Assembly: GCF_054482595.1 (NCBI RefSeq) | Contig: NZ_CM137008.1 | Direction: 5' to 3' (one strand) | DNA: 64,000 nucleotides | Shown: positions 37,213 to 44,224 of the stretch, in pieces | Layout of the letters: each line of letters starts with the position of its first letter | Position numbering within the stretch: the stretch's first letter is position 1 | Notes under the pieces: model-generated | Database searches by the model: none | What the model was told of the DNA's origin: nothing | What the model saw: only the letters and a program-made list of their open reading frames with translations | Program-made: the position numbers and the translations under genes

Positions 37213-38349
37213 TTACGAAAGCCCGCTCCCCGCAAGGACTGACGCCAGATAGTTTCTGTCCATGGCTGCTTTTCGCATCTTACGTCTTAACCCTGCCTTG
37301 AATACCTTATCATTCGTCAAAATATTAATAGCAATGTGCCGTATCCCTGAAAATAATTCTGCTGCATTTCCTCTTCTTATTTTGCAGTCGTCTTCATTCA
37401 TTACCACGTCCAGACGCCAGTGCAGCTTATTCTCCACGTGCCAGTGGTTTCGGATTGCTGTGGCGAACTTCTCTGCGGTTAAATCAGCAGAACTGATATA
37501 ATATCTGACCGTCATTTCTGGCTCTTTCTTTTGTTCTGCTATTATGGACCGAAAGGAGACTGCCACGCATAATTTCTTCAGCCCTTTCCATTCAAACGTG
37601 AAATCAATAAGTTCATCAGGGACATCGCAAACATTATGAAGACGGATCTCTTCTCTGCCGTGACTCTTTTCACTCATTGCGTAACTGTCATGCTCTGGAT
37701 TATTTAATTCTTTCAGTGGAAATTTTTCCTCAAAGGCTTTATTAAGCCGCCCCTGATTTCCTTTTACAGCGAATAAATAATCACCGCCCTGTTTTTGTAT
37801 CTTCTCTGCGATATCTTTCTGGCAACCCATCGCATCAGTTGTGATAATTTTTCCTTTAATATCCAGCATGTTAAGAAGTTCAGGGATAGCTGTAATCTCA
37901 TTAGATTTCTCATCCGTCTTGATCTGTCCGATGACCAGACTGTGCATTGTTGAGAACGCACTAATGACATGAATCGCTCCCCTGCGGCGACTCTTGTCAT
38001 AAGAGTGCCGGAGCGTTTTTCCATCAATTGCAATGACGTCTTTATCATCTGAAGAATGGCAGTCACGCATCCAGTTAATAAAGCACTCGTGAAATTTTGC
38101 AGGACTGATACAGGATACAACTCTGGCAATGGTATCGTGAACAGGAATACCATTTTCAAAATCACCATATTGCTTCAAAAAATCGAGATGTGTTTCCCCA
38201 AAATCCTCTATATCTTCCCAGCCTTCTGCACCAGAAATAACGGCACAAATAGTCAACAGTAGAATATCCGATAATTTATGCTCCACTTTCCAGGCTTGTC
38301 TGTAATCAGGGATAATAGAAATATGTTCCATCAATTTTTTAAGTTCCAT
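37213..38349 (-). mobile_element. H-rpt (H repeat-associated) element of an Rhs locus: intact 378-aa ISAs1-family transposase-like ORF
   Basis: 378 aa, [64 protein letters not shown]... matches the YhhI/H-rpt protein family; element ends not determined. Confidence 0.85.
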
Positions 38350-38987: not shown

Positions 38988-39290
38988 TTATTTTGTGTGT
39001 ATTACATTCAACACTTGCCCATCTTTTTTCGCTATTAGTATTGTAAAATTTCCTCCTAAAGTCTTCGGTTGTTTTCCCTCGATTTTCCAACAATTATTGT
39101 CATCTGTAATACTATATGGTTTCTGAAATTCTGCTTTTTCTTTCCCGTATACATATTTAATGTAAACATATGATAATTCCAAAGCCATTTCACGACTATT
39201 TACTAAAATTTCCACTGGATTTTCTTTTCCAAATACTTGTTATGATATTGTAAACAATATCATAATAAGTAATATTAGTGAGTTTCTCAT
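38988..39290 (-). pseudogene. Small secreted-protein ORF interrupted by an in-frame TAA at codon 17 (plus-strand 39240-39242)
   Basis: From ATG (39288-39290, minus strand) the frame reads MRNSLILLIMILFTIS-TAA-QVFGKENPVEILVNSREMALELSYVYIKYVYGKEKAEFQK...HTK. A signal-peptide-like N-terminus continues in the same frame across a single stop. Confidence 0.5.
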
Positions 39291-39458: not shown

Positions 39459-40028
39459 TTATTTTTCTTCACTACGAAGCAGTTCATGCTGTATTTTTGT
39501 TAAACATTCGTAAGACTCATCTTTGTTCGGGAGATGTGCTGTCATTCGAGCATAAGTTGGCTTCTCATCTTTAAAATATTTAACCATGATTGAATTATCA
39601 AGGACTGCCAACAACTGAGCTGGATCACTGCTCTTTTTTTGATAGATACCCGCTCTTATATAACTTCTAAACCGATCGCCGAGAAACGCCGTTTTTTCTG
39701 CTGTATTTATCAACTCCTGCAACGTTCCTTTGATGGCATGATTTTCATTAAGGCGTAGTGACCCGACACGAATTAAGAGTCTCGCCCCGCTTGATGTGAA
39801 TTTATTATTTTTACATGTACCCAGTTCTGTTTGCCAATAATACTCACCGATGTCCTCATTCTGATACCATCTCCACATGGCTTTATTATTTAAGACAGGA
39901 AACGCGGAAAAAATAGTACCCTTAGCGAAAATAGTAAAACAATCATGATCTTTAGCTTGTATTTCGCAATCAGCTATAACACCAAAATTAACAAATATCA
40001 TCAGCAAAAAGAACAAAACTCTTTTCAT
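39459..40028 (-). CDS. Putative Rhs immunity protein (periplasmic; signal peptide)
   Basis: 189 aa, [19 protein letters not shown]|DCEIQ...; its ATG overlaps the rhs stop (ATGA); AT-rich like the Rhs C-terminal tip. It may correspond to K-12 ybfC, but this was not verified. Confidence 0.65.
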
Positions 40029-43000
40029 TTTCTTATTCCTCTCGATGTTCTCTGTTTCATTTTAGCTAAAATTTCACCCAAATCATCTATCCCTGCTGTT
40101 GCTGGCCCATCGGGTTTATTAATGTCTGGGAATAAATAGGGTTCTGCACAAGTATATCCTGGTGGTAATTGAGTTGTTGGCCAATTTGTCTGTGGCAGGT
40201 AATCACTTGCTGTCTTTGTATCCATCCCTGGATACTGGGGATCATCCTGTGGCGTACAAGTCAGATTTGGTTTTACCCACTTCCTGCAATACAGTGTGTA
40301 GTCGTAAGGGCTTAATGCTCTGAAGAATGTTTTGAAAACATTAGGCGCACTACTGGCCTGGTCAATAGGATATGGCAGTCTTAATTGTTTCGCTATGTCT
40401 GGCAATTTACTTGGATCGGGCGTAGGCGGTTTGTTGGGTCTCGCTCCATATCCGCCATTATTTAAGTGTCCATATTTTGATGCCAGTCCCATTGAATCTA
40501 TATACTGAACCGGATTCAACGGATACTGATAAAAATTCCATCCCCCCTTCAGTCCAATCGGATCCTGAGTGATATACCTCCCCTGCAGCGGGTCATAATA
40601 GCGGTGGCGGTTGTAATACAGGCCGGACTCCTCATCATACTGCTGACCCGGCAGGCGGATGAGCTGCTGCAGCTGGTGCGGGTTCTCTTCATTCAGCTGG
40701 TTACCCCATTCATCGTATTCTGCGTACCACGCTGTTGTCCCTTCCGTGCTGATAAGCGCCAGCGGCAGGCCGCGATGGTCGCAGTGGTACAGGTGGATTT
40801 TTCGCGCCGGCGTGTACACCGGGTCCATCTGGTTTTGCATCTGCTTCACCGTCAGGCCGCACGATGCCAGCCAGCGGCGGCTTTCCTCACTCACCCGGTC
40901 AGCCAGGATTTCACTTTCCAGCCGGTCGAGCATCTGCACCAGCACCGGCGGGAACACCACACTGCCACCGTCTTCACCGCCGGACTGCTGAAGGGCATCC
41001 GCCAGGCTGCGGCGCTGCGTTCTGGCCAGTTCACCGGTGGCAGTTTCAACTCTGATGAGTGGTGTGAAGCTCCCCGGCTGATAAATCGTCTGGATGCGGG
41101 TTCTGTCGTTCTGTATCGTGGTCAGGCGGTCGCCATCCCAGCCGTACCAGGTCACTTGCGGTTTCCGTGACAGCGACATCCAGCCCGTCAGGTCCCGTTC
41201 ACGTCGCCATACCCGTTTTGCCACCCTGCGGCCCAGCGGGTCGTAAAGATAGCGGCTTTCGACCAGCGGCTCTGCATATTGTGTCCGCGTGTAGTGCACC
41301 AGCCGGTGCTGACTGTCGTAATGGTACCGGTGGGTGCGCTCATCATCCGTGCGGATAACCCCTTCCGGGATGAGGTCGGTTTTCTCTGTCAGTCTGCCGT
41401 GACGGTCATACCGGTAAAGATAGTGCGCGTCACGGGCGATACGGTTATCCGGCCACATGCTGAGGGTGCTGTCCGGGTGCAGCTCCGGGTCGGGCAGGCG
41501 GTTACCTGCCGGGTCCGTGGCATACGGGATGCGGATATCAAGGTTCGCTGCCGTGGTGTGAACGCCGGTCAGCCTGCCGGAGTCGCTGTAGCTGTAACTC
41601 CGGGTATGGCGCGGGCTGCTGATGCGGATGAGTTCGCCGTTGTCGTTCCAGGTGTAATCGCGGTCAGACTGCAGGCTGTTCAGGTGCTGGCTCTGTAACT
41701 GCCCGGCAGGGGTATAAGCGGTGGTGAGTTCATAATGGCCGAAGCTGCGCAGCGTTTCCCGGTGCAGGCGGTCGCGGGTGAAATCCACCAGCGGTGTGTC
41801 GCCGAGCTTCATGCCTGACAGCCAGCCGCTGCCGTAGGTCAGCCATTCCACGGCGGGCAGGCTGTCCGGTATACAGCGGTTCGCCAGCCCCTGCGCGTTG
41901 TAAGCGTGTCTGGTCTCATGCTGCCAGAGCAGTGCTTCCGTCTGCGGGTGATGCACCGTCTGACGCTCACCGGTCAGGCGGCCTTTCTCATCATACCTGT
42001 AATGCACCGCTACCCGGTGCCCTTCGCTGATATGGCTGATGTCTGTCAGCCAGCCACGTTCGTCATACCGCCACCGCTCTGCGGTTTCACCCTTCACGGT
42101 GCGGTGCGTGAGGCGGTCTGCTTCGTCATAGTGCCAGTGGGTGACCAGACCCTCATCCTCGCTGCGGATAAGTTTGCCGGTCAGGTCGTGGTGATAATGC
42201 TGTGTGCGGCCGTCAAAGCCGGTTTCCTGTATCAGCCGGTCGAGTACATCGTAACGGAAGGTGGTGTGGCTGCCGTTTTCACTGGTCAGGCGGATGACCC
42301 GTCCGGCAGCATCGTATTCCATACTGCGCGTCAGACCGCCCTGCGTGGTACGGATGGCCTTTCCCCACGCATCGTACTGTGTCCCGTTTCTGCTGCCGTC
42401 CGGAGCAATGACGGCGGTCAGGTCACCGGCGGCGTTGTATTCATACCGCATTTCATGGCCCTGCATGTCTTTCACGGCAATTAACCGTCCACGGCTGTCG
42501 TATGCGCGGTACTGACTCAGCCCTTCCTCGCGGTGCACCGCCGTCATCTGCCCGAAACGGTCATGGTCATAACGGGTTACATAACCGGAACAGTCGGTGA
42601 AGCTCAGCAACTGGCCGTAACGGCTCCACGTCATGGTTTTCCGGCTGCCGGTGGCATCGTCCGTTGCGCAGGGTAAGTCACTGTGTGGATTATCATAACG
42701 GTAGCGGGTGATATCGCCGTCAGGGGCGGTTTCCTGAATCAGACGGCCGGATTCATCATATTCCCGGCGCATTTCCAGCCCGTCAGGCCCGGTGGCTGAC
42801 GTTAACTGGCTGTGGTGGTTATAGTAAAATGCCGATGCCCTGCCATCCGGTGTGGTGATGCGCGTGATGAGTCCCGTCACCACATCCGGGCTGTATTCTG
42901 TTGTCCGGCCTGCGGCATCCGTCTGTGCCTTAAGCCTGCCCACCGCATCAAACTGACTCTGCGTGACGCTGCCGTCCGCGTGTTCCTTTTTCACCACCCG

Positions 43001-44224
43001 CTTCAGCCCGCCTTCGCCCTGCGTGTGCAGCACTTCACGGCGGTCCAGGCTGTCGGTGATGGTGATGCGGTTTTGCTCATAACAGTAGGTGTAGCTTAAG
43101 CCCGCCGGGTTAAGCTGCTCTGTCACCCGCCCGTCGCTGTCGTAACGGTAACGGATTTCCGGTCGGCCCGTGTGACGGTGCGCCACCATCCGGCCCCGGT
43201 ATTTATCATCGTAAGTAAAGCTGCGCACCTGTGTATTGCTGCGGTCATACACCGCCGCCAGTTCGCCGCGTGGCGTCCAGCCATAGCGCACCAGCGGCGC
43301 GGCTGGCAGGTTGTCCGGGTATTCCGGGTCGTGCGTCAGCCACACGGCAGACAGACGGATGCCGTTGTCCCGGCCATATTCGGTGTAACCCGGCAGGGTA
43401 TCAGGAAAAGCGGACGGTTCCGTCCCGCCGGAAGAGGCCTGCTGCCGGGCTTCTTCTGCCCGCTGCGCCTGCGTGGTCAGTACCAGCCGGAAGTGACGCC
43501 CGGCACCATCCGTCACGCCGGTGATTTCGCCGCTGAATTCACCGGCGGCTTCGCGGTGGAACGTCTGTGTGCGCCCGAAGCGGTCCACCAGCCCGGTCAG
43601 TACCCGGTACGGCGGCAGCGGCGCAGGCAGCACCTCATCCGCTTCCGGCACCCGCTCACACCAGCCGAGCAGCCACCACGGCCCCTGCGGACTGTTTGTC
43701 GCCAGATAACGATGCGGACTTAAGCGGAGTTCTTCCGGCAGCGCCTGCCAGAGTGCGGCCAGCCGGTGACCTTCATCCAGTTTCGCCACGCCGCCGCGCA
43801 CCAGCCACAGTGACTCGCTGCGGCTGTAACCGTCCTCACCGGGAAACAGGTGCTCAAAATACAGGCTTCTGCCGCCGTTATCACTGAGTATCAGTGTGTT
43901 ATCGCGCAGCTGTAAGCGGATATCCGCAGGCATTTTCCAGCCGGGGCCGAGGCTCCCCACCGGCGCGGGCGTTTTTGTCCGGTAACTGCTGTAGGTGCGG
44001 GAGAGAATGAACGGCAGCGGGGCGGGCAGGGCGATGTCGGTTTCACCGGGAAGGACCTTTGCACCGAGCAGCGGATTGACCGGATGGCCGGACGTCACCC
44101 CGCCGGGGCACACCGAACAGGCCACGCCGGTGGGGGCACCAATACGTACCCCGGCTGAACCCTGGACAATGCTACCGCCATACTGCGTCATGTCGCCCTG
44201 ACGCGCCGCCGGTTTTCCGCTCAT
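40025..44224 (-). CDS. rhsC: Rhs family protein (RhsC-type): PAAR-like N-terminus, YD-repeat shell, variable C-terminal toxin tip
   Basis: 1399 aa, [42 protein letters not shown]...; many YD/RYxYD repeats; core ends near ...[16 protein letters not shown] (40484-40498), followed by a 152-aa AT-rich tip (40028-40483). Confidence 0.93.

Follow-up and report, generated by a model that had tools for sequence, protein, structure and literature searches.

Proteins of the Rhs/TcC type release their C-terminal toxin tips by way of an internal aspartyl protease, which is built from two DPxGL motifs (PMC2935791; PMC6833914; PMC7170923; PMC8636562; PMC8765631). In Rhs1 of P. laumondii, 17 residues separate the motifs, D1338 is catalytic and the tip runs from A1343, after DPLGL (PMC8636562). 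RhsA of P. protegens, with the pair D1324/D1346, is cut at W1350 (PMC8765631), and TseI of A. dhakensis has the pair D1407/D1429 (PMC7170923); mutation of either aspartate leaves each of these two proteins uncleaved. The demarcation of core and tip was worded strictly as PxxxxDPxGL by Jackson 2009 (PMC2935791) and Poole 2011, and was extended by Lewis et al. 2019 to DP(I/L)GxxGGx5Yx8D(P/S)xG(L/W), 'most commonly I, P and L' (PMC6833914). The D(P/S)xG(L/W) consensus is restated in the paper on the structure of Tse15 (PMC11461821). A serine in place of the proline at the Rhs cleavage motif is already known, as part of this published consensus. The Rhs/TcC proteins that have been studied experimentally carry proline, whereas the protein described here, the cleavage of which is predicted, carries the minority residue serine.

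The cleavage-site exception of Pei et al. 2020, 'RhsA of EDL933', was considered as a possible counterpart of this protein and rejected: it is Z5014, a protein without the second motif. E. coli EDL933 RhsA (Z5014) reads YPLNPVINVIRKLVDVFPRPFP, with the second DPxGL motif entirely absent (PMC7170923 supplementary file 6), a far stronger departure from the consensus than DSMGL.

The rhs gene and its predicted cleavage site

The DNA analysed is a stretch of 64,000 nucleotides from contig NZ_CM137008.1 (NCBI RefSeq assembly GCF_054482595.1), here called the window. It carries an E. coli rhsC locus, and the features that matter for the argument, all on the minus strand, are as follows.

40025..44224, minus strand: full-length rhs gene at the rhsC locus, 1399 aa (open reading frame list and translation)
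40550..40564, minus strand: first motif DPxGL, D1221-P-I-G-L1225, with D1221 the predicted first catalytic aspartate (computed position; 22 residues before D1243)
40484..40513, minus strand: second motif PxxxxDSxGL, P1238-VQYI-D1243-S1244-M-G-L1247, with D1243 the predicted second catalytic aspartate (17 residues after the first motif)
40493..40495, minus strand: codon TCA of Ser1244, at a position that is usually Pro (CCA in K-12 RhsC; codon comparison)
40481..40486, minus strand: predicted scissile bond between L1247 and A1248 (alignment with the mapped cleavage sites of Rhs1 and RhsA; NCBIfam core profiles end at L1247)
40028..40483, minus strand: C-terminal tip, predicted YbfO-type toxin domain, residues 1248-1399, 152 aa
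39459..40028, minus strand: ybfC, predicted cognate immunity gene, 189 aa, with an N-terminal signal peptide; overlaps the rhs stop codon by 4 nt

The gene order is dtpD-phr-ybgA-(ISEc1)-(orphan NTF2 immunity gene)-ybfC-rhs-ybfA-kdpFABC, and the region is 99.8% identical to that of E. coli XH990, in which an equally similar (99.8% identical) 'RHS element core protein' lies between ybfA and ybfC. No T6SS or vgrG gene adjoins the rhs gene in the part of the window that extends to ybfA, nor does the annotation of XH990, the closest genome, show one there. Downstream of ybfC stands an isolated gene for a 75-aa 'NTF2 fold immunity protein' (38988-39215, minus strand), with no toxin fragment called before it, and after this an ISAs1-like ISEc1 (H-repeat) transposase (37213-38349, minus strand); K-12 has ybfQ/ybfL/ybfD at this position instead.

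The encoded protein is laid out as a DUF6531 domain, YD repeats, the RHS core and the 152-aa tip. Pfam recognises DUF6531, eleven RHS repeats (RHS_repeat) and the RHS domain, whilst the NCBIfam model NF041261 ('RHS element core protein') matches residues 1-1247 from end to end with 2637 bits (cut-off 2000). The Rhs-associated core model TIGR03696 covers residues 1170-1247 with all 76 of its profile positions (80.4 bits, cut-off 32.5, E=1e-22). Both models stop exactly at L1247, the leucine of DSMGL, and the identification of DSMGL as the motif that ends the Rhs core is no chance match. At the other end of the protein, the literal tetrapeptide PAAR occurs at residues 5-8 (44201-44212, minus strand). 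Residues 48-55 (44060-44083, minus strand) read PVNPLLGA, to be set against the N-terminal cleavage motif PVxxxxGE of other T6SS Rhs proteins; the glutamate implicated in that cleavage is absent.

The first-pass annotation of this DNA had reported DSMGL at 40484-40498, and the reverse complement of these positions, GAT TCA ATG GGA CTG, does encode D-S-M-G-L as residues 1243-1247. Its assignment of the site to core/tip demarcation and autoproteolysis also holds, given the common end point of NF041261 and TIGR03696 at L1247 and the arrangement of DPIGL, 17 residues and DSMGL. Residues 1221-1247 match the extended motif, written as the regular expression DP[IL]G..GG.{5}Y.{8}D[PS].G[LW], exactly, and the strict PxxxxDPxGL form is not matched, as serine occupies the proline position. 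The likeness to the Rhs/TcC aspartyl autoprotease, DPxG-(18)-D(P/S)xG(L/W), lies in two aspartates 22 apart (D1221 and D1243, in DPxGL and DxxGL), in the 17 residues between the pentapeptides and in Gly-Leu before the cut. It extends to a sharp switch into an AT-richer, variable tip (core GC is 0.61-0.65, tip GC 0.44) and to an immunity gene directly downstream. Behind the predicted cut the tip begins ASKYGH. As far as the primary sequence goes, the site is canonical in both aspartates, in the 17-residue spacer, in Gly-Leu and in the small residue that follows the cut, and departs from the norm only in the residue after the second aspartate.

Comparison with K-12

Whether RhsC of K-12 shares DSMGL had been left unanswered in the first-pass annotation, and the answer is divided: RhsC proper does not, and the K-12 orphan ybfO does. 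In K-12 MG1655 the order at the same locus is ybfA-rhsC-ybfB-ybfO(pseudogene)-ybfC. K-12 RhsC (b0700) is 89-100% identical to the window protein in each block of 100 residues as far as about residue 1200, and has the same locus and the same first DPIGL, but ends NPISNIDPLGL (GAT CCA TTA GGA TTA, that is DPLGL, at the position of DSMGL) and continues into an unrelated tip, downstream of which YbfB is encoded. When the codons of the two genes are compared, divergence sets in directly after YPLNP (residue 1238), five codons before the aspartate, so that the x positions of the motif and the serine belong to the exchangeable tip cassette and not to the conserved core. As part of that cassette, the serine travels with the tip wherever the tip goes.

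The K-12 counterpart of the window's tip lies 1.4 kb downstream of RhsC, at the same locus. Along their final 478 aa, the window protein and K-12 ybfO (b0703) agree at 468 of 478 aligned residues, the tip being 98% identical; the 11-residue motif stretch is the same, as are ybfC (b0704) and its chromosomal location. The window thus bears the 'ybfO' tip on a full-length gene, whereas in K-12 the same module is a 5'-truncated orphan, displaced behind RhsC with its DPLGL tip and ybfB. The pair (window 40025-44224; K-12 locus L001, 3584-9654) offers a clean example of C-terminal displacement at a single locus.

The residue after the second aspartate among relatives

That proline is the usual residue after the second aspartate was likewise part of the first-pass annotation, and this stands. 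Among the 150 best representatives of 50%-identity clusters, retrieved with the core end alone, about 130 have the motif, and these divide into 110 DP, 13 DS, 2 DA and one each of DV, DF, DT and DR; serine is the commonest alternative to proline. A query of core end and tip together, the matches to which are biased towards the query's own tip, gave 120 best matches, of which 97 have a recognisable motif (79 DP, 13 DS, 4 DA and 1 DQ). Proline is found in every solved Rhs structure among the matches listed. Because proline is so strongly preferred (about 85%), the position cannot be regarded as unconstrained. DS occurs with at least four unrelated tip families, one of which begins, after the cut, with VNSNLYPNDTEA.

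Homologues of the window's tip itself, 72-76% identical, are present in Salmonella, Phytobacter and metagenome contigs. Salmonella enterica reads PVSWTDSMGL and Phytobacter ursingii PVSWIDSMGL; in one metagenome contig the serine is kept with a different codon (TCG against TCA). The homologue of S. enterica subsp. salamae reads IDPMGL, with the proline codon CCA, and that of a vgrG-linked Rhs from a metagenome reads IDALGL, with the alanine codon GCT. Members of the tip family at a greater distance (31-39% identical) have DAMGL, DAVGL or DPLGL. The codons of the homologous tips imply that proline, serine and alanine are exchanged for one another through single changes at the first codon position, within one toxin family on which purifying selection acts. 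In the vgrG-linked DALGL Rhs (JGI metagenome contigs L004, 429-7132, and L005), gene calling breaks the core up into many short genes, probably owing to frameshifts or assembly errors.

Frequency in E. coli genomes

Of 5426 complete E. coli genomes, 3572 carry the tip, and 3550, or about two thirds, match a 45-nt query with the serine codon at its centre. Megablast requires an exact word of 28 nt, and any such word within the 45-mer covers positions 18-28, which hold the Asp, Ser and Met codons; GAT-TCA-ATG is therefore exact in all 3550 genomes. The conserved core end just upstream is found in 18005 copies in 3882 genomes. DSMGL accounts for 3553 of these 18005, or roughly 20% of the detectable E. 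coli Rhs core ends, and occurs in about 91% of Rhs-bearing E. coli genomes. It is thus not the majority form in E. coli; a majority among functional E. coli Rhs proteins is what the first-pass annotation had named as speaking against its concern over the variant.

In 1073 genomes, O157:H7 and O55:H7 among them, the tip is contiguous with a full-length core and annotated as an intact 'RHS element core protein' CDS. The remainder, about 2470 genomes or some 70% of copies, have a displaced orphan behind another tip, as in K-12, and these orphan copies may be unexpressed. The count of full-length genes rests on a 1976-nt query, 80% coverage of which is reached only where the tip is contiguous with a full-length core. 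This coverage-based count was used in place of annotation names, which in small 'spread' samples gave inconsistent fractions of full-length genes and orphans (8/39; 6/11).

The tip and YbfC

The tip is variable, AT-richer than the core and directly followed by a small, co-conserved immunity gene, as is characteristic of Rhs toxin-immunity pairs. YbfC homologues with signal peptides follow the tip at all five loci inspected at the DNA level: the window's own, those of Phytobacter and S. salamae, and two on metagenome contigs. By the Nei-Gojobori method, the tip has a dN/dS of 0.22-0.41 and the immunity gene one of 0.14-0.26 (dS 0.5-1.2); between two serine-bearing lineages the value for the tip is 0.22. 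Toxin and immunity genes are under purifying selection, which shows that the toxin matters and not that its release is as efficient as with proline.

The family of tips is marked by an invariant SPYDYTxYCxKW, three cysteines and a terminal Arg-Lys. YbfC has a signal peptide and four cysteines, features which suggest that the toxin acts in the periplasm. Searches with Pfam and NCBIfam returned no match for the tip, YbfC or 13 homologues of the tip, and a profile search of PDB sequences with the tip was equally without a match. An AlphaFold2 model of the tip, built on a 13-sequence alignment, has a mean pLDDT of 60.6 and is confident only at residues ~60-120; Foldseek found no match to it in the PDB at E<=0.001. 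In the literature on ybfO/ybfC, no functional study was found, nor any published test of the toxicity of the tip or its neutralisation by YbfC.

Interpretation and rival explanations

Taken together, DSMGL is very probably a working, tolerated natural allele of the C-terminal autoprotease site of Rhs proteins. DSMGL would form the second half of the aspartyl autoprotease site (DPIGL, 17 residues, DSMGL), in which D1221 and D1243 are predicted to cut the chain after L1247, presumably with normal efficiency. Within the YD-repeat shell, the YbfO-type tip of 152 aa would thereby be freed, and in the producing cell YbfC would neutralise it. The position after the second aspartate is only partly conserved, and serine would be tolerated there.

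The first-pass annotation had raised the concern that an unusual form of the motif could alter release of the tip. Put as an explanation, serine would change autoproteolysis so that cleavage is slower, partial or conditional and release is tuned in a manner unlike that of DPxGL tips. Proline in about 85% of representatives and in all the solved Rhs structures listed suggests that it shapes the geometry of the active site, and the signal peptide on the immunity protein would be in keeping with a tip that may need release in a different compartment. Such a change is nevertheless unlikely, for proline, serine and alanine replace one another within a single tip family, with neighbouring residues and immunity gene unchanged, and serine accompanies at least four unrelated tips and so does not track any one toxin type. 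The published consensus includes serine without comment (PMC6833914; PMC11461821), the pair of catalytic aspartates and their spacing are intact, and the distribution of the variant lends the concern no support: serine is fixed in the tip of 3550 of 5426 genomes and persists in other genera, once despite a synonymous TCA/TCG change. A narrower version, in which serine or alanine after the second catalytic aspartate slows the autoprotease or makes cleavage conditional, such that some tips, the YbfO type included, stay attached until a later delivery step, is considered distinctly improbable.

Two further readings concern the integrity of the sequence itself. If the DSMGL tip were a decaying relic, its cleavage site disabled and the module kept mostly as a silent orphan, then the ~2470 of ~3550 E. 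coli copies that sit behind another tip, and the annotation of K-12 ybfO as a pseudogene, would find a ready explanation. However, the tip stands on an intact full-length gene in 1073 genomes and within an open reading frame in the window, tip and immunity gene alike have dN/dS values well under 1 at dS 0.5-1.2, and the D-S-M codons are the same in every one of the 3550 genomes, with serine retained through a synonymous change in a distant homologue; decay is thus very unlikely. A sequencing error or a mutation private to this strain would demand nothing more than a single transition, CCA to TCA, but has next to no chance of being correct and is refuted by the same 45-mer, which K-12 ybfO and 3550 independent complete genomes share.

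Implications for the Rhs family

Were the autoprotease indeed slowed or made conditional by these residues, the position occupied by proline, serine or alanine would be a natural tuning knob for toxin release, in a system whose YbfO-type immunity protein would be periplasmic. With DSMGL read as a tolerated allele, the significance of the variant is small and lies mainly in a caution for annotation. About 15% of related Rhs core ends escape the strict PxxxxDPxGL pattern, and since these include a tip that two thirds of complete E. coli genomes carry, D[PSA]xG[LW] is the safer pattern with which to delimit the tips of this family.
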